This document shows, piece by piece, positions 1,021 to 7,979 of a stretch of DNA of 7,979 nt; positions within the stretch are counted from its first letter, which is position 1; each line of letters begins with the position of its first letter. The notes beneath the pieces are model-generated. The model ran no database searches, was not told the DNA's origin, and was given only the letters and a program-made list of their open reading frames with translations. The DNA comes from a virus (Duplodnaviria; Heunggongvirae; Uroviricota; Caudoviricetes): the IMG/VR virus record IMGVR_UViG_2740892230_000037; one strand, given 5' to 3'. The translations under genes and the position numbers were made by a program.

Positions 1021-1330
1021 TGTTCAGCGCCTCAAAATCGGGTTCAGCAGAAACCAGTTCAGATGTTTTTGGCATCGTTGTCAGACCGTGTGGAATATCC
1101 CTGCGGAGAACTATGGGTTCGTTTTTAGGGCCGATTACAAATGGGATGCCGTGCAGTCTTAACTNNNNNNNNNNTCCGTGTGGAATATCCCTGCGTAGAA
1201 CTATTGGTTCGTTTTTAGGACCGATTACAAATGGGATGCCGTGCAGTCTTAACTGGTGTTGCTGTTTTGTGTATCGCTCGTATTTCGTGATCTCTTTAAT
1301 CTCTGCTGGAGATAGAGTTAATTCGTACAT
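998..1330 (-). CDS. xis: Excisionase-like small protein; the true product is probably about 80 aa because the ORF crosses gap 1165-1174 and contains a duplicated block
   Basis: ATG at 1328-1330 (MYELTLSPAEIK...) and a lysine-rich C-terminus (NNGKTKKK) that overlaps the int start by 23 nt. Position, size and overlap match lambda-type xis. The 26-aa block LRLHGIPFVIGPKNEPIVLRRDIPHG is encoded twice, on either side of the N run. Confidence 0.55.
   Translation of the reverse strand: MYELTLSPAEIKEITKYERYTKQQHQLRLHGIPFVIGPKNEPIVLRRDIPHGXXXXLRLHGIPFVIGPKNEPIVLRRDIPHGLTTMPKTSELVSAEPDFEALNNGKTKKK
1081..1258. repeat. Two copies of an 84-bp xis segment separated by N10 (1165-1174)
   Basis: 1081-1164 and 1175-1258 align base for base with 3 substitutions, all synonymous in the minus-strand xis frame (ctc/cta, ccc/cca, ggc/ggt). 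Confidence 0.9.
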
Positions 1331-1397
1331 GTGGTCACGTGCCTTTACAGCATGACCGCCGCCACTATAGCTGGTGGGCGGCGATATGGGTTGAACA

Positions 1398-1570
1398 TTA
1401 AAAATCAGCCTGACTCGGGATCAGTTTTTGCCAGATAGCTGAAACGTATTTTGCCTGATAACGGGCGTCATCAAGTGCATTATGGCGCTCACCTTCGAAT
1501 GGGATAGCAGTTCTGGCATCGAAGTCTATGGCTTTCCCCAGCTCAACGATTGTGCGTACATCGCGATCGT
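1398..1570 (-). CDS. DEDDh 3'-5' exonuclease, C-terminal fragment with stop (allele 1)
   Basis: Minus-frame translation DRDVRTIVELGKAIDFDARTAIPFEGERHNALDDARYQAKYVSAIWQKLIPSQADF ending at the stop at 1398-1400. Contains the Exo III motif H-x-A-x-x-D-A (HNALDDA). Truncated upstream by gap 1571-1580. Confidence 0.7.
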
Positions 1571-1580
1571 NNNNNNNNNN

Positions 1581-1843
1581 GCAGTTTTTGCCAGATGGCT
1601 GAAACGTATTTCGCCTGGTAACGTGCATCGTTCAGAGCGTTATGGCGTTCACCTTCGAATGGAATAGTCGTTCTTGCGTCGAAATCCATCACCAGTCCCA
1701 GAGCAACCATCGTTCTTACATCGCGATCATTGGTGTAACGCCACGGGCAGGGGATCCCCTGCCGTTCATATGAACGGCGTAAAATCACGTTGTCGAAAGT
1801 TGCACCGTCACCCCAGACCTGAACAAAAAATTCACCGGAGTTT
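1581..1843 (-). CDS. DEDDh 3'-5' exonuclease, internal to C-terminal fragment (allele 2)
   Basis: In-frame translation NSGEFFVQVWGDGATFDNVILRRSYERQGIPCPWRYTNDRDVRTMVALGLVMDFDARTTIPFEGERHNALNDARYQAKYVSAIWQKL. Carries an Exo II-like FD motif (GATFDNVIL) and Exo III (HNALNDA). Bounded by N runs on both sides. Confidence 0.7.
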
Positions 1844-1853
1844 NNNNNNNNNN

Positions 1854-2192
1854 CTGCGCTTCACGTGATTGCTTCAGCCACCATTTAATGACGTCACGAT
1901 CAATGACTCCGCCAGCAGTATCCAGATCGATGGTCTTGCTAAATTCTGGTCCCATATCTCCGGTTTGCGGATCGAAAAATATTGCGCCTATTGAGATAAT
2001 CGGGGCATCGGGATTTTTTCCCATGGTTTCAAGGTCGATCATCAGATGAATCCCCGCTCTGCTGGTGGATGTGAGCTTATGATGACCATTCACCTTAATT
2101 AAGGGATCTGTCGCCTCGCCAGTTTTATTATCGCTGGCGTGATGCTGATTGCCGCCAGGGTTCTCCTTGTGTGGATGTTCAGCGCCTTCCAT
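1854..2192 (-). CDS. DEDDh 3'-5' exonuclease, N-terminal fragment with His-rich leader (allele A)
   Basis: ATG at 2190-2192; [21 protein letters not shown]...NGHHKLTSTSRAGIHLMIDLETMGKNPDAPIISIGAIFFDPQTGDMGPEFSKTIDLDTAGGVIDRDVIKWWLKQSREAQ. Exo I motif D-x-E (MIDLETMG). Truncated downstream by gap 1844-1853. Confidence 0.7.
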
Positions 2193-2203
2193 TNNNNNNN
2201 NNN

Positions 2204-2527
2204 TTGCGCTTCGCGTGATTGCTTAAGCCACCATTTAATGGTGTCCCGATCAATGACTCCGCCAGCAGTTTCCAGATCGATAGTCTTACTAAATTCCGGT
2301 CCCATATCTCCGGTTTGCGGATCGAAAAATATTGCGCCTATTGAGATAATCGGGGCATCGGGATTTTTTCCCATGGTTTCAAGGTCGATCATCAGATGAA
2401 TCCCCGCTCTGCTGGTGGATGTGAGATTATGATGACCGTTCGCCTTAATTAAGGGATCTGACGCCTCGCCAGTTTCACTATCGCTGGCATGATGCTGATT
2501 GCCGCCAGTGTTCTCCTTGTGCTGATG
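2204..2527 (-). CDS. DEDDh exonuclease N-terminal fragment (allele B, about 95 percent nucleotide identity to 1854-2192)
   Basis: Same frame and motifs (…[99 protein letters not shown]). Bounded by N runs. Confidence 0.65.
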
Positions 2528-2537
2528 NNNNNNNNNN

Positions 2538-2732
2538 GATCGGGGCATCAGGATTTTTTCCCATGGTTTCAAGGTCGATCATTAGATGGTTACACGTCCT
2601 GCTGGTGGATGTGATTTCTTGATGACCGTTCACCTTAATTGAGTGATCTGCCGTCTCGCCAGTTTCATTATCGCTATCGTGATGCTGATTGCCGCCAGTG
2701 TTCTCCTTGTGTGGATGTTCAGCGCCTTCCAT
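2538..2732 (-). CDS. DEDDh exonuclease N-terminal fragment (allele C)
   Basis: ATG at 2730-2732; [65 protein letters not shown]. The 33 nt preceding gap 2734-2743 are identical to the 33 nt preceding gap 2194-2203. Confidence 0.6.
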
Positions 2733-2744
2733 TNNNNNNNNNNC

Positions 2745-2885
2745 ACACGTCCTGCTGGTGGATGTGATAACGTGATGACCGTTCACCGTAATTAAGGGAT
2801 CTGCCGTCTCGCCAGTTTCACTATCGCTGGCGTGATCCTGAGCGCTACCAGCATTCTCCTTGTGTGGATGTTCAGCGCCTTCCAT
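2745..2885 (-). CDS. DEDDh exonuclease N-terminal leader fragment (allele D)
   Basis: ATG at 2883-2885; [47 protein letters not shown]. It is in the same frame as, and 57 nt downstream of, the amber stop of the zinc-ribbon ORF at 2940-2942. Confidence 0.6.
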
Positions 2886-2939
2886 TTCCTTCGGATCATC
2901 TTCCTGAACTTCAACCTGATACTCTTCATCGAATGTTTC

Positions 2940-3085
2940 CTAGTATGTTGCGTCGCCCATCACCGCGCCACAATCAGGGCAGTTGCCGCCGCCGGTCTGA
3001 CCGCAGGCGGTGCAGACTTTTTCCACTTCCTGTTGCGCCACTGGTTCAGGCTGTTTCGTTTCTGGCTCGTTTTGTAACGCATTTG
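2940..3085 (-). CDS. C-terminal end of zinc-ribbon protein (Q/E/P linker plus CxxC-x9-CxxC), ending in TAG
   Basis: In-frame translation ...[47 protein letters not shown] then the TAG stop at 2940-2942. 5' side truncated by gap 3086-3095. Confidence 0.65.
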
Positions 3086-3095
3086 NNNNNNNNNN

Positions 3096-3284
3096 CCATC
3101 GAATATTTCCTGGTATGTTGCGTCACCCATCACCGCACCACAATCAGGGCAGTTGCCGCCACCGCTCTGACCGCAGGCGGTGCAGATCTTTTCCGGTTCC
3201 TGTTGCACTACTGGTTCAGGTTGTTTCGTTTCTGGCTCGTTTTGTTGCGTATTTGGGCTGTTTTGTTCCGCTTTCTGGTCGTTC
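3096..3284 (-). CDS. Zinc-ribbon module, allele with CAG (Gln) in place of the amber stop, reading through toward the exonuclease leader
   Basis: [63 protein letters not shown], with no stop before gap 3086-3095. The CAG codon at 3110-3112 aligns to the TAG at 2940-2942. Confidence 0.6.
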
Positions 3285-3294
3285 NNNNNNNNNN

Positions 3295-3450
3295 AGTTCC
3301 GTTCCGATTCATGCTGGTTCTGGTTTACAGAATCGCGGGTCTGGATCCCCTTAACCCATTTCGGATCATTCGGGTCGCTAATCCCTGCAACAAATTCTCC
3401 GCGAGAGGCAGCAAGCAACTTATCGGCGTCAGGCTGGCTGATATTGGCTG
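3295..3450 (-). CDS. Shared module fragment ([51 protein letters not shown])
   Basis: In-frame minus-strand translation. The same module, with substitutions, sits at the C-terminal end of the 4609-6133 ORF and in 3461-3712. Confidence 0.6.
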
Positions 3451-3460
3451 NNNNNNNNNN

Positions 3461-4405
3461 TCAACAAATTCACCACGTGATACTGCAAGCAGTTCATCGG
3501 CGTCAGGCTGGCTGATATTGGCTGCCTGCATAATTTTCTTTACTTCGTCAGCGGTAACTTTTACCGGTTCTGGTTGTTCAGAATTTTGTGCGGTATTTGC
3601 ATTTTGCGGTAAGCCTGTGTATGTGCCATTTTTTCGGGCAAAATATTCTTCTTTTGTGATTTCAGTAGCCCCGGCAGCCAGCGCCTTATCCAGACCAGAA
3701 AGTTTGTTTGCGNNNNNNNNNNACGTGCGAAGTATTCCTCTTTTGTGATTTCCGTAGCTCCCAGGGCCAGTGCTTTTTCCAGACCAGAAAATTTGTTTGC
3801 GCGACCGTATTTTTCGCCATCCTTGTCGGTGAAGAGGAAGTAGAACGGCCCCTCACGCTCTACAGATGGTTCGACTTCCACTTTGCATTCGGTTTTTTCG
3901 TTGTCCGGAATTGCCGTTTCCACTGCATCAGTTTCTGGTACTGNNNNNNNNNNAGCTTCCGGCGCGGTTTCATTTTTTGGGATATCAGATACCTCAGTTT
4001 CCACTGCATCAGTTTGTGTTTCTGATGACTGGAGAACATCAACAGTGCCCAGGTCTGTTTCTTCATTCTCAAACACGCCCTTTGTCGTCAGGTATTCGCA
4101 GATATATTTGTTCAGTGCTACGGGATCTTTGTGAATGTNNNNNNNNNNTGACGGGAGAGTACCAGCTGTGCCCTGATTTGTTCCTTCGTCATCTTCAAAC
4201 ACGCCCTTGGTAGTCAGGTATTCAGTGATGTATTTGTTCAGTGCTACGGGATCTTTGTGAATGTCGATCGGACGCTCACGGACAAGGCCAAAAATAGTCT
4301 GACGGTCGTAGCGAACGGCATCGGGTTGTTTGCGCATTGATGCGGAAATGCGCTTCCAGTCTTCGCGATCTTTGTCGATAACTTCATTTTTTGCCCAGCG
4401 ATGGA
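3461..4405 (-). CDS. Four gap-separated fragments (3461-3712, 3723-3943, 3954-4138, 4149-4405) of one or more paralogues with a different N-terminal domain joined to the same shared module
   Basis: Translations: (4149-4405) ...HRWAKNEVIDKDREDWKRISASMRKQPDAVRYDRQTIFGLVRERPIDIHKDPVALNKYITEYLTTKGVFEDDEG...; (3954-4138) IHKDPVALNKYICEYLTTKGVFENEETDLG...; (3723-3943) ...VEREGPFYFLFTDKDGEKYGRANKFSGLEKALALGATEITKEEYFAR; (3461-3712) [83 protein letters not shown]. Adjacent fragments overlap as divergent alleles. Confidence 0.55.
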
Positions 4406-4415
4406 NNNNNNNNNN

Positions 4416-4598
4416 CTTTTTCCGGTTCCTGTTGCGCTACTGGCTCAGGTTGTTTCGTTTCTGGCTCGTTTTGTAACGCATTTGGGCTGTTTTGTTCCGC
4501 TTTCTGGCTGTTTTGTTCCGCTTTCTGGCCGTTCTGTTCCGTTTCTTGCTGGTTCTGATTCACTGAATCGCGGGTTTCAATCCCCTTCACCCATTTCG
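4416..4598 (-). CDS. Linker fragment of the shared module, containing a 21-bp tandem repeat
   Basis: [60 protein letters not shown], bounded by gaps on both sides. Confidence 0.55.
4464..4548. repeat. 21-bp tandem repeat (unit gctgttttgttccgctttctg, 2 perfect plus 2 degenerate copies) encoding QKAEQNS heptads
   Basis: Perfect units at 4486-4506 and 4507-4527, degenerate units on either side. Further copies of the unit lie at 3256-3276 and near 3061-3085, next to gaps. Confidence 0.85.
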
Positions 4599-4608
4599 NN
4601 NNNNNNNN

Positions 4609-6133
4609 CGTTCCGTTCCGATTCATGCTGGTTCTGGTTCACAGAATCGCGAGTCTGGATCCCCTTGACCCATTTCGGATCATTAGGGTCGCTAATCCCC
4701 TCAACAAATTCACCACGCGATACAGCAAGTAACTTATCGGCGTCAGGCTGGCTGATATTGGCTGCCTGCATAATTTTGTTTACTTCGTCAGCGGTGACTT
4801 TTACTTGGTTAGCGGAACTCACTTGCGACTGAGCATCCAGCGACTGCGCGTTCTGGCCATGTTCAGTTGTATCCGGTTCCATTGTTTCAGTTGTTGCCTG
4901 TTCACCTGCCATTGCGTCAGATGGTTGTGGTTTTTCTTCTTCTGTTTCACGCTCAGTAACCACCTCGCGGTTAATTTCTTCCAGGATATCTTTTTCCGGC
5001 GTATGCCGGGCAGCTGTGAGAGTTTCCTTGCTGGGGTTCTCGTGATCAGTTTCCGTCAAATAGGCGTTGATATACCCCTGAAGGCGTCCCGGGTAGTGAT
5101 AAAATTCAGGGTGTGCGCTTCGGATAAGTGCAAAAATAGCGGCGCGGGAATAGTCCAGAATACCCGGGGTTGCACGAAGTGCTGCGGACCATTCTTTGAA
5201 CGGACTTTCTTTGTTCAGGACTACTTCTTTTGCGCGACGATAAACGCTGCCCGGAATTTCATAAATATTAAAATCCATCGGAAGTGTGGCTGCTGCAATC
5301 TCCACATCCAGTGTGTCGAGGGTGTGTACTAAATTCGGATTGCGATCGGTTTTGTTCCCACCGCCAGCATTAGCACCGGAAGCCGTGCGGGTGATGCGTG
5401 AAACACGATTTCCTTTCATCCACTCTTTTGTCAGCAGACCCCGATCAGTGTAGTCAGTGTCCAGGTATGCTTCGAAAAAAGCAGTTATTAGTCCCAGGTC
5501 TGAATTACCAGGATTAGGGAAAACTTTGTCAGTGTCACGAACCAGTTTGTGGAGGTCGCGAATCTCCAGCGAGTCGAGCAGACTGGTTTTATGCGAAATA
5601 GCCAGGGCAGTAACAGCCGGTAGTTCTTCAGCCCGTGCAATGTGTAATGCCTGGAGTTCGTCGCGTGAAACGTGCGTTACTGATTTTTCGCTGCCGTGTT
5701 GAGCAAGCCAACGAATGGGCAGTTCCTGACCGGAGACAGGCAGAAGCATGCTCTCCTCAATCTCAGTCATGTCTTCGCCGTTGATGTTGGTATTGTCAGT
5801 GCTGGCTGGTTTGTCCTGAACAGAGGGGGAAGGGCCGATAAATGTCATTGTGATGCCATCTTTCCCGCCTTTTTCATAGCGGTTGCAGAATTCAGTATCA
5901 AACACGCCTTCTGGCGGAAGGTCGTCAACAACGGGCAAATTGACGCGGACGGGTTTTTTAAAGTCGTCTTCATCATAATCGTTGTCATCCATTGCGGTAA
6001 TGCAGCGGGAGATTGCAACAGATAATTTTTTTGCTGTAGTCCAGTAAAAACCACCTTTAATTCCTAGGCGTTTTCTTACTTTGTCATTTTTTGCTTCGCA
6101 ATATAGTGCAAATTCTTCTTTATCAGTGCTCAT
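4609..6133 (-). CDS. Large early-left protein, N-terminal 508 aa (5' complete, 3' cut by gap 4599-4608); tentatively RecE-N-terminal-like, possibly an intact counterpart of Qin-prophage ydfE
   Basis: ATG at 6131-6133 with a GAGG about 10 nt upstream; long protein-like ORF with an acidic TE-rich region. It ends in ...[56 protein letters not shown], the module that elsewhere continues into linker and zinc ribbon. The resemblance of its central region to the RecE N-terminal half is from memory only. Confidence 0.8.
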
Positions 6134-6226
6134 TATTGGTAAACCTCATCACAGATTTAAGGGTGAACAAATCTCTGCCATTGCTGACATATAAGAATGA
6201 AACTGGATATTTATTACGGTGCTGTT

Positions 6227-6418
6227 TTAAAATCCTGCCGGGATTTCGTTATTATCCTGGTGAATAACTTTATCGACCGGGTAACAGTTACCGGGAATTT
6301 TCTGTTCGGTTGCTGCAGTCACACACTCCTGCATTGTCCTGTGAACACTGACTGCAATATCAACTGGCTCTCCGGAAACAAGAAAAACTGTCAGAACAAG
6401 TGCAAATGCTGTATTCAT
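6227..6418 (-). CDS. ydfD: YdfD-like small lysis protein with a hydrophobic N-terminus (63 aa)
   Basis: ATG at 6416-6418 overlaps the dicB stop as ATGA; MNTAFALVLTVFLVSGEPVDIAVSVHRTMQECVTAATEQKIPGNCYPVDKVIHQDNNEIPAGF. It sits immediately downstream of dicB, as in the Qin prophage of E. coli K-12. Confidence 0.7.
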   Translation of the reverse strand: MNTAFALVLTVFLVSGEPVDIAVSVHRTMQECVTAATEQKIPGNCYPVDKVIHQDNNEIPAGF

Positions 6419-6569
6419 TGCCAGCATCCTTTTTGTATCGGACGTAAACGGGCCAGCATTGAAAGAATGCATATTTTATTTAATAGCTCCCGTTCGTGTT
6501 TTCTCTTGTTAATGGCATCTTCAGTAAATACAGGGTTACTGATAGTGACACCAATTTCAAAACAACCTT
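6415..6569 (-). CDS. dicB: dicB allele 1, C-terminal fragment (5' cut by gap 6570-6579)
   Basis: ...GCFEIGVTISNPVFTEDAINKRKHERELLNKICILSMLARLRPIQKGCWQ with stop at 6415-6417. About 90 percent nucleotide identity to 6606-6760. Confidence 0.7.
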
Positions 6570-6605
6570 NNNNNNNNNNCGTCAGAATAAGTGCAAATAC
6601 TGGAT

Positions 6606-6794
6606 TCATTGTGCACATCCTTTTGGCATCAGACGTAAACGGGCCAGCATTGAAACAATGCATACTTTATTTAATAACTCCCGTTCGTGTTTTCTTTTGT
6701 TAATGGCATCTTCAGTAAATACAGGATTACTGATAGTGACACCAATTTCAAAACAACCTTCAGACGTATTAACGTTTGGTAATAACGTTTCCAT
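6606..6794 (-). CDS. dicB: DicB cell-division inhibitor (complete, 62 aa)
   Basis: ATG at 6792-6794 with GAGGA 7 nt upstream; METLLPNVNTSEGCFEIGVTISNPVFTEDAINKRKHERELLNKVCIVSMLARLRLMPKGCAQ. The stop overlaps the ATG of a second ydfD allele (6580-6609, cut by the gap). DicF lies 180 nt upstream on the same strand. Confidence 0.8.
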   Translation of the reverse strand: METLLPNVNTSEGCFEIGVTISNPVFTEDAINKRKHERELLNKVCIVSMLARLRLMPKGCAQ

Positions 6795-6812
6795 TATCGC
6801 GTCCTCAACAAT

Positions 6813-6964
6813 GAATTTTGTGATGCGGTGCCTGGTGCCTCCAGGTGACGTTAACCAGTTAACAATTAACGCCGGATACAGAGCATTCCCGTTACGCCCG
6901 TAAAAGACCGCTTGTTTTAACTGTTCCGCGTGCGCTTAGCCGCATTCACCGCATCACAAAATTC
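6813..6964 (-). promoter_or_regulatory. Perfect 18-bp inverted repeat (6813-6830 and 6947-6964) bracketing the dicF-dicB spacer; candidate long-range RNA duplex and RNase III site
   Basis: Plus 6813-6830 gaattttgtgatgcggtg is the exact reverse complement of plus 6947-6964 caccgcatcacaaaattc. One arm is just 3' of the DicF terminator, the other about 20 nt upstream of the dicB start. Confidence 0.5.
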
Positions 6965-6969
6965 ACTTT

Positions 6970-7012
6970 AAAAAGGGCGGCAGAGCAGTCACGGAGTAAA
7001 ACTGATACCGCC
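6970..7012 (-). terminator. Intrinsic terminator forming the DicF 3' end
   Basis: GC-rich stem (GGCGGUA...UGCCGCC) followed by five U on the minus-strand transcript (A run at plus 6970-6974). Confidence 0.65.
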
Positions 7013-7027
7013 AAACGTCACCAGAAA
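6975..7027 (-). ncRNA. dicF: DicF small RNA (ftsZ-targeting sRNA of the dicB operon)
   Basis: Reverse complement of 6975-7027 reads TTTCTGGTGACGTTTGGCGGTATCAGTTTTACTCCGTGACTGCTCTGCCGCCC followed by TTTTT, which matches the 53-nt DicF sequence as I recall it, and it lies directly upstream of dicB. Confidence 0.8.
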
Positions 7028-7360
7028 ATTGATAACAGAGGGCGTTGCAGCGGGGTTGTCACTTAAGCGTATGGTCAACCTGACAACCCGGTGTCCTCAA
7101 CGGGGAAGGAATAACCCCGCCATACTTACCGCCGCGCCATTTCGCGGATTGCCACAACCGGAAGCGCACGGTCGACGAAAATTTAACGACAGGCTATCTA
7201 TGAACCAGCTACCTCGCCGTGCGCTTTCGCTTTATGCCCTAACTTTTCAGGGACATATCCTTTCAGTAAACTGTCAGTGCCGGATGTTCACCCGTGTCCG
7301 GCGCACGCACTCCACTTCACCCGTGGAGAACTCCTTAATTACCAACCCTCAGGAGGGTGA

Positions 7361-7594
7361 ATGTTAAAATCAACTCTTATTGCTAAATGCCTTTATCAAA
7401 ATCGCATGGTAAGCAGCATTTCAATAGGCGAGTCTGCAGTTAAAAGTATTTTCGAAGAGTACTTTCCCGGGCATGATTTTAATAAATGGAATACCAAATT
7501 ACCGCCAGCAGTTTCAACGCGTATTCTGAAAGCAACCGAAAGAGCAAGTACAATTCGCGTTAACTATTTCATTAAAGATTTGTGGGATCTTTGA
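7361..7594 (+). CDS. Hypothetical 77-aa protein (AT-rich island, unknown family)
   Basis: ATG at 7361 preceded by AGGAGG at 7351-7356; protein-like composition (MLKSTLIAKCLYQNRMVSSISIGESAVKSIFEEYFPGHDFNKWNTKLPPAVSTRILKATERASTIRVNYFIKDLWDL). Base composition turns visibly AT-rich at about 7357. The 3' end overlaps the convergent 135-aa gene by 23 nt. Confidence 0.55.
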   Translation: MLKSTLIAKCLYQNRMVSSISIGESAVKSIFEEYFPGHDFNKWNTKLPPAVSTRILKATERASTIRVNYFIKDLWDL

Positions 7595-7979
7595 TATCCA
7601 CAGAGCCTAAAGTATGTGCATATGGATGTGCTATTATGCGCCCTCGCAGATTTGCATCATTTTCTAAATTCACTGAACGAAACAGGGCATCAACAAGGCT
7701 CTGTACAATGCAAAGGCAATCGAAGACTGTCGCCGTTTCTGTTTTGATTGATGAAAGAACATGGCCATTCACGCAAACAGAAATTACCCGTTTATTAACA
7801 TCGCTTTCCTGCTTTTGATTATCAGAACCATATAGCCCAGAAAAAGCATTGCGCACATTACGAACCATATTATCGATGGTTTCTTTTTCTGCGGTACTAA
7901 GGTCAAGAGTAGCCAGTTGTGAACGAACTATATTCGATGCCATTTCCTGTAATGGCGTTGGTAAATCTTTAAATTCCAT
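7572..7979 (-). CDS. Hypothetical 135-aa protein (AT-rich island, unknown family); start codon is the last three bases of the window
   Basis: ATG at 7977-7979, TAA at 7572-7574; balanced, soluble-looking composition (MEFKDLPTPLQEMASNIVRSQLATLDLSTAEKETIDNMVRNVRNAFSGLYGSDNQ...). The plus-strand ORF antisense to it (7582-7818) is R/S/C-rich and junk-like. Upstream signals are outside the window. Confidence 0.6.
   Translation of the reverse strand: MEFKDLPTPLQEMASNIVRSQLATLDLSTAEKETIDNMVRNVRNAFSGLYGSDNQKQESDVNKRVISVCVNGHVLSSIKTETATVFDCLCIVQSLVDALFRSVNLENDANLRGRIIAHPYAHTLGSVDIKDPTNL

Follow-up and report, generated by a model that had tools for sequence, protein, structure and literature searches.

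The BstA antidote aba is a DNA element inside the bstA gene, and Esc is an internal product of the sieB gene in phages P22 and lambda. Genes on the strand opposite to lytic genes are typically accessory loci and have promoters of their own, bstA is mentioned in the same account, and OOP and its BTP1 counterpart are described there as convergent antisense RNAs (PMC7067206). By analogy of logic, BstA/aba, SieB/Esc and convergent antisense pairs such as cII/OOP are the closest known systems to the locus analyzed here, which is related to none of them in sequence or fold. This locus lies at the right-hand end of a window of 7,979 nucleotides (nt), i.e., the whole stretch of IMG/VR virus record IMGVR_UViG_2740892230_000037 (Caudoviricetes) that was analyzed, and it is a cassette rich in adenine and thymine (AT-rich) that carries two convergent genes with overlapping 3' ends: gene A on the plus strand encodes 77 amino acids (aa) and gene B on the minus strand encodes 135 aa. 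The pair is kept together in prophages of many genera and therefore probably works as one uncharacterised unit. The cassette is a prophage accessory locus that is real and widespread, and the gene pair is undescribed in every library searched.

The cassette is a discrete insertion, as the first-pass annotation, made from the sequence of the window, had supposed. In blastn comparison with the Qin prophage of E. coli K-12, positions 7348-7981 form a clean 634-bp insertion/deletion (indel), with K-12 positions 2562/2563 corresponding to window positions 7981/7347. The segment is absent from K-12 Qin, both junctions are clean, and the insertion point in Qin terms lies after the 20 nt that trail ydfC and before the dicF leader. 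The locus had been expected to continue beyond the window, which it does not: 7979 is the first position of gene B, and the indel reaches only to 7981, 2 nt past the edge. The proposed shift in base composition is borne out by the computed profile of guanine-plus-cytosine (GC) content, which drops from 0.539 at 7029-7347 to 0.392 at 7348-7979 with the boundary placed at 7348, and the cassette has the 23rd lowest GC content among 735 intervals of 632 nt (lowest 3%). Low GC content is not unique to it, since the dicB/DUF1482 stretch at 6000-6800 is equally AT-rich (GC 0.36). The ribosome-binding site, both genes and the 23-nt overlap (Table 1) all have the coordinates first assigned to them. The stretch in front of the cassette, described earlier as free of open reading frames (ORFs), does contain a 112-aa ORF with a TTG start (7029-7367, plus strand), which we reject as a gene: its frame is broken in other alleles of the locus and it has no family match. 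The cassette was found in 659 of 5426 complete E. coli genomes (12%), with at least 99% identity in 599 of those, and its carriers include many Shiga toxin-producing E. coli (STEC) strains of the O157:H7, O26, O103, O111 and O145 types.

Table 1. Coordinates of the cassette, its genes and signals, the neighboring features of the window, and the alternative alleles found at the same site in other loci
Feature	Position	Strand	Remarks
AT-rich cassette with gene A, gene B and the ribosome-binding site of A	7348-7979, true end 7981		GC content and comparison with K-12
AGGAGG ribosome-binding site of gene A	7351-7356	+	4 nt before the ATG at 7361; read from the sequence
Gene A, 77 aa, WP_000920491.1, phrog_10348	7361-7594	+	from the ORF list; annotated as hypothetical
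Gene B, 135 aa, WP_000394552.1	7572-7979	-	start codon 7979-7977
N-terminal domain of B, residues 1-57 (MEFKDLP...)	7809-7979	-	common to many early-left genes with other C-termini
B domain, C-terminal residues 58-135	7572-7808	-	part that travels with A
Overlap of the A and B 3' ends, TTAAAGATTTGTGGGATCTTTGA	7572-7594 (23 nt)	both	imperfect palindrome encoding ...KD..L* on both strands
Candidate promoter TTTTCA-17-TAAACT	7244-7272	+	putative; 8 of 12 positions; not reported by the promoter scan
dicF leader, GC-rich, long untranslated part of the dicBF operon	7029-7347	-	operon structure from PMC5069750
dicF small RNA	6975-7026	-	Rfam RF00039, 76.7 bits, E 1e-16
dicB	6606-6794	-	62-aa ORF; named dicB in homologous records
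Early-left operon of a lambdoid E. coli prophage	left arm (the window)		integration next to ompW
201-aa allele: B domain plus 72-aa extension, with an unrelated 63-aa antisense gene	L101, 3001-3775		23-nt overlap
133-aa allele with 27-aa and 64-aa antisense ORFs	L104, 2501-3152
208-aa allele; its 69-aa antisense gene has a leader and Shine-Dalgarno sequence of its own	L105, 2501-3337

The main evidence for a single unit is the conserved pairing of A with the C-terminal part of B (residues 58-135, referred to as the B domain). Among all fetched enterobacterial loci outside E. coli in which both genes are intact, A always converges on a B-domain gene; the two share 23 nt, or 26 nt in loci whose A is one codon longer. 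Counted from the B side in 80 viral-contig loci, A is found at 23 nt in 67 and at 26 nt in 5, and the remaining loci comprise one with a broken A, five with the 201-aa allele, one genuine B-only locus and one at a contig edge. Metagenomic A homologues with only about 40% identity also face B-domain genes, with a 23-nt overlap in locus L099 and a 75-nt overlap in locus L188. L099 has the module inverted with respect to its YfdP/DUF2303 early genes, and A and B still converge, which marks the convergent arrangement as an invariant feature. Co-occurrence of the two genes in other genomes, the lack of which would have spoken against the first-pass annotation, is confirmed across genera, and from searches with A as well as with B. 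Loss of one partner follows a pattern. A is broken beside an intact B in three loci (L012, L093 and L160), and no intact A beside a broken B domain was found among the phage loci examined. A without B occurs only outside phage early regions, on plasmid-like contigs (L096-L098) and on a chromosome (L013); a further B-less A precedes a small terminase gene on a contig that, at 1.2 kb, is too short to judge. The plasmid-like contigs carry Rep3, ParA and Tn3 genes, and the gene after the B-less homologue P0171 (4001-5100 in L096-L098) has an FRG domain and matches PDC-S15, a candidate defence family of PADLOC (E 6.5e-72). This neighbor is the only hint at the exclusion, abortive-infection or toxin-like functions suggested in the first-pass annotation.

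The same pattern could arise from two functionally independent genes that are co-inherited through their physical overlap, the 23 nt being frozen by double coding and having no regulatory role, and we regard this explanation as rather unlikely. An overlap is hard to change once both frames use it, overlaps of 41 and 0 nt in other alleles of the locus show that its length is not universal, alleles of A and of the B domain recombine in E. coli, and each gene can occur without the other, all of which would suit independent genes. Such genes would not be expected to stay neighbors in different genera, with A diverged to about 40% identity, among varied flanks and in both orientations, which is unusual in mosaic phages, nor would the B domain be expected to keep A while its N-terminal partners change among a YdfC-like coiled coil, a zinc-ribbon-like segment and the E. 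coli N-terminal domain.

Gene A is under strong protein-level purifying selection. Its N-terminus, MLKSTLIAKCL, is nearly invariant while the codons vary synonymously, and mean nonsynonymous divergence (pN) is 0.22 against a synonymous divergence (pS) of 0.74. Homologues fall into 33 clusters, mostly of 77 aa with some called with longer N-termini, and they show 55-72% identity across Enterobacterales (Klebsiella, Raoultella, Dickeya, Xenorhabdus, Photorhabdus, Proteus, Morganella, Salmonella, Yersinia and Serratia); the full span including metagenomic phages is 39-72%. A profile search of 1.84 billion representatives recovered 163 A-family clusters, nearly all of 74-80 aa, which together with the lack of any Pfam or NCBIfam match makes A a member of a broad family of about 75 aa outside both databases. 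In PHROGs the protein matches phrog_10348 (E 1e-47), a family of unknown function. AlphaFold2 predicts a five-helix domain with a mean predicted local distance difference test (pLDDT) value of 96.8 and a predicted template modelling score of 0.86; the predicted fold had no match in PDB, and a BFVD search returned only A's own family. The A family is listed by PHROGs without a function, and its modelled fold appears to have no solved relative. Some of the distant family members P0163, P0174 and P0202 have a low-complexity linker and a shared C-terminal tail ending in (K/R)(I/F)NGRT, and the immediate downstream neighbor of one such member, with which it overlaps, is a Terminase_4 small terminase gene (L187, 187-973). 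Gene calling in a Serratia prophage (L007) gave another 77-aa ORF shortly ahead of A (5548-5781, plus strand); it has no similarity to A, is rich in Arg, Pro and Gly, and is probably not a gene.

Gene B is composed of two parts. It lies within the early-left operon, 22 nt after ydfC and ahead of the dicF leader, so that only A opposes the operon and B runs with it. Residues 1-63 match phrog_6937, 2151, 9419 and 33007, and the N-terminal domain is common to the 133-, 201- and 208-aa alleles and to PA2 gp25 and is widespread in early genes of E. coli and Shiga toxin (Stx) phages. The whole protein matches phrog_1363 (E 5e-47), and residues 55-128 match phrog_23433 (E 1.7e-8), both being families of unknown function. 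The B domain shows 35-43% identity (E 1e-14 to 1e-18) to standalone 77-79-aa proteins that are the convergent partners of A in Dickeya and Serratia, and a hidden Markov model (HMM) of the domain also picks up the partners of A in L099 and L188. In the B-domain alignments A2 and A5 the residues T, A, D, LE, A, G and H are invariant and N is nearly so. Outside E. coli the domain is either standalone (about 78-90 aa) or fused to other N-terminal segments, for instance to a YdfC-like coiled coil (L092, 5212-5793, minus strand) or behind a CxxC...CxxC segment that, judged by eye only, resembles the ClpX zinc ribbon (L085, 5212-5685, minus strand). In Proteus (L010, 5480-5707, minus strand), as in E. 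coli, a separate ydfC-like gene lies directly upstream of B. Stx2a-phage proteins like PA2 gp25 were considered as carriers of a B domain without A and rejected, the B-domain HMM giving E 0.16 and only the N-terminal domain being common. A is the more conserved of the two proteins, with 57-72% identity against 28-43% for B.

In E. coli the cassette is one allele of a polymorphic slot between ydfC and dicF and not a one-off insertion. The slot alleles (Table 1) keep the N-terminal domain of B, and their C-termini and antisense small genes are unrelated; the 63-aa antisense gene of the 201-aa allele, for example, replaces exactly positions 7362-7595. On the other side of the cargo stands the dicF leader, which is 94% identical to that of K-12 and is conserved in all alleles, K-12 having the leader and no cargo. 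Its plus-strand side is the conserved upstream region of all antisense cargo genes: the leader with its Shine-Dalgarno (SD) sequence, ending ...ccctcAGGAGGgtgaa, precedes A as well as the unrelated small ORFs of L101 and L104, and L105 diverges upstream of its own SD sequence. A long-range stem formed by GGAAGCGCACGG and CCGTGCGCTTTC (7159-7229) is kept in every allele's dicF leader, and related loci of the Klebsiella and Salmonella types have it too. In L101 a single substitution preserves pairing only as G.U on the minus strand, which fits a structure in the sense dicBF transcript. The conservation of the leader may thus simply reflect its role in the dicF precursor. A hairpin in the leader of A that would sequester the SD sequence is not supported and stands only as a lead, the z value being -2.2 in the window and only -0.1 to -0.9 in homologues. 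A link of the module to dicF was rejected, dicF having been found only in E. coli loci.

The shared leader invites the explanation that the locus acts in cis, i.e., that an antisense unit starting in the dicF leader damps leaky early-left read-through into the toxic dicF-dicB region in the lysogen, with A and the other small ORFs being interchangeable cargo of little consequence. We consider this very unlikely. It would account for a single leader and SD sequence in front of unrelated cargo ORFs and for a leader that is conserved even in cargo-less K-12, and with no terminator-like site after A, plus-strand transcription would continue across B and ydfC in antisense. The sense dicF precursor explains the leader equally well, however, with one substitution pairing only on the minus strand, and the cis explanation does not suit a protein under strong purifying selection that is predicted with confidence to fold, nor the presence of A and B in phages without dicF.

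We favor a reading in which A is an accessory or exclusion protein expressed in the lysogen, B is an early-expressed partner or antidote, and convergent transcription makes the two mutually exclusive; from the sequence evidence we give it roughly one chance in three. The cassette would be a mobile two-gene module of temperate-phage early regions. A would be made from its own promoter under prophage repression and would act in exclusion or defence as an accessory factor, and its transcription in the lysogen would run antisense into B. On induction, the C-terminal domain of B would be made from the early-left operon as the cognate partner or antidote of A and would let an A-carrying phage grow lytically, while strong early transcription would shut A down via polymerase collision and antisense pairing. 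Since the genes converge and their 3' ends overlap, expression of A and B would be mutually exclusive.

Several observations count for the favored reading. The pairing survives deep divergence and phage mosaicism in both orientations to the operon, and the clean 634-bp indel and the inversion in L099 indicate that the module behaves as a unit. Its place within or beside the immunity region, just behind a cI-type repressor, fits an accessory locus. Outside E. coli a promoter-like block is conserved upstream of A, with a -35 element TTCACC, a 16-nt spacer and an extended -10 element TGGTATCTT, and this block lends further support, as does the confinement of A-only homologues to sites outside phage early regions, one of them beside a PDC-S15 gene. 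The decay pattern, in which A is lost and B kept and never the reverse in phages, fits an A that is dispensable and a B that is harmless alone. The higher conservation of A and its invariant N-terminal helix suit an effector that acts on a conserved target, and unrelated C-termini matched to unrelated antisense small genes are as expected for a locus under diversifying conflict.

A number of findings weigh against the favored reading. Neither A nor B has a usable match in Pfam, NCBIfam, PADLOC or PDB sequence profiles. B is predicted with a pLDDT of only 41, an unusable model. In E. coli a scan for a sigma-70-type promoter upstream of A or for a terminator-like site found none above threshold, and the promoter-like block of the other genera is missing upstream of A. 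The B domain occurs without A in L180 and in the 201-aa allele, and the defence-gene neighbor of A is a single type of locus. The polarity argument from L099 rests on the gene at the repressor position, an unidentified 161-aa gene, and with the flanking genes of L099 and L188 lacking an identification the argument from both loci is weak. Finally, one A allele of E. coli pairs with B-domain alleles that are 74-76% identical (pS 0.06 versus 0.31); from this unequal synonymous divergence A and B are not tightly co-inherited in E. coli, where their alleles recombine.

A third explanation, which we hold to be distinctly improbable, is an addiction or kill-antikill pair resembling toxin-antitoxin systems, in which one protein is harmful (B, in the manner of Kil or DicB, or A) and the other neutralises it, with the antisense overlap setting the A:B ratio. 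Two small proteins with conserved pairing would fit, and outside E. coli A is preceded by a conserved promoter-proximal inverted repeat, CCACC-N9-GGTGG, that might serve as an autoregulatory operator. The neighbors of B, dicB and dicF, are known toxic early products (PMC5069750), and B is poorly predicted alone, as labile antitoxins often are, although a low pLDDT may simply reflect a shallow alignment. The genes converge and do not form a co-transcribed pair, Pfam, NCBIfam and PADLOC searches found no homology of A or B to a known toxin or antitoxin superfamily, and the existence of both A-only and B-only loci means that neither protein strictly needs the other.

Both proteins had been called orphans, and no search of Pfam, NCBIfam, PADLOC, PHROGs, PDB sequence profiles or, for A, predicted structures related either one to a characterised phage gene. 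The sole Pfam hint was ROS_MUCR (E 0.088), far short of its cut-off; PADLOC-DB v2 gave no match for A, B, YdfC or the other slot alleles, and a literature search by accession, peptide or PHROG identifier found no account of A or B.

The surroundings of the cassette are those of an early-left operon. On the minus strand the gene order is a cI/DicA-type repressor, a 99-aa gene, ydfC and gene B, followed by a 320-nt untranslated leader, dicF, dicB, DUF1482, exonuclease, xis and int, with dicF and dicB at the positions first given for them. This layout matches the dicBF operon reported for Qin, which consists of ydfA-ydfB-ydfC, a long untranslated region with dicF, and dicB-ydfD (PMC5069750). Homologous records place paa on the same prophage in O157:H7 and non-O157 STEC. 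Between dicF and dicB (6762-6977, minus strand) the sequence matches Rfam STnc100 with 39.1 bits, below the gathering score of 47 (E 1.7e-6). The region 1165-6579 contains fifteen runs of exactly 10 N, and the 16 pieces are mutually overlapping variant copies of the exonuclease and early-left region with 80-96% identity, for which reason the window has the look of paralogous prophage copies flattened into one assembly; the cassette lies in the piece 6580-7979, which is contiguous. In two E. coli prophages (L102 and L105) the segment from the repressor to ydfA holds a PaaA2/ParE toxin-antitoxin pair, at about 1440-2170, a second variable accessory slot of the early-left operon in some dicB-type prophages.

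The cassette lies inside a well-studied operon, yet neither protein is named, is in Pfam or has a solved relative. A convergent protein-coding pair with a fixed 3' overlap is an uncommon architecture that predicts reciprocal expression. As a reading of sequence patterns, we think it unlikely, if worth stating, that the pair of A and the B domain represents a new family of effector plus protein antidote in prophage defence, or a convergent, mutually exclusive two-protein switch, and that the stretch between ydfC and dicF is a polymorphic conflict locus. If true, the variable C-termini of one early protein would be paired with cognate small proteins from the other strand, in O157:H7 as well, and the slot would be a phage-internal analogue of polymorphic toxin-immunity cassettes. 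Defence plus antidote would then amount to a new prophage immunity module and a polymorphic hotspot for finding more; failing that, convergent-gene control in phage early operons still has a clean model in this locus.

Compared with known systems, A and B fall outside the type I and type II toxin-antitoxin families. Like type II pairs they are small paired proteins on mobile elements, possibly with an operator-like inverted repeat, but they converge, share no family homology with such pairs and each occur alone as well (A in L013 and L096-L098, B in L180 and the 201-aa allele). Type I toxins are hydrophobic peptides of less than 60 aa, whereas A is predicted to be a soluble 77-aa five-helix protein and its antisense partner encodes a conserved protein and not a non-coding RNA. 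The constant N-terminal domain of the slot proteins, with unrelated C-termini and differing small neighbors, resembles the polymorphic toxin-immunity cassettes of contact-dependent inhibition (CDI) and Rhs systems; the slot proteins differ in being cytoplasmic phage early proteins of 133-208 aa without a secretion or delivery domain, and their small genes are on the opposite strand.

Prophage moron loci antisense to lytic genes, such as STMMW_20121 of ST64B (PMC7067206), resemble A in opposing the operon, and A is likewise a discrete insertion, AT-richer than its surroundings and close to the immunity region. The first-pass annotation had described the cassette as a typical moron, and this much of that picture holds. 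It has to be amended in that B is an in-operon early-left gene of which only the C-terminal 78 or so residues belong with A, the slot is polymorphic, and no promoter or terminator above threshold was seen in E. coli. The locus differs from morons in having two genes with one of them in the operon, and in that the pair and not a single gene is conserved; in E. coli a promoter or terminator of its own could not be shown, the weak promoter candidate at 7244-7272 matching 8 of 12 positions. BstA/aba and SieB/Esc come closer to the proposed logic, in which a lysogen factor encoded near the repressor would be matched by an escape function on induction; there is no sequence or fold similarity to them, and the candidate antidote here would be a separate convergent protein. 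The arrangement itself is most like lambda cII/OOP, i.e., convergent units with overlapping 3' ends within an early operon of the lambdoid type. A and B both encode conserved proteins, whereas OOP is a non-coding RNA of 77 nt, and an arrangement of the cII/OOP type can give reciprocal control that depends on RNase III or on polymerase collision.

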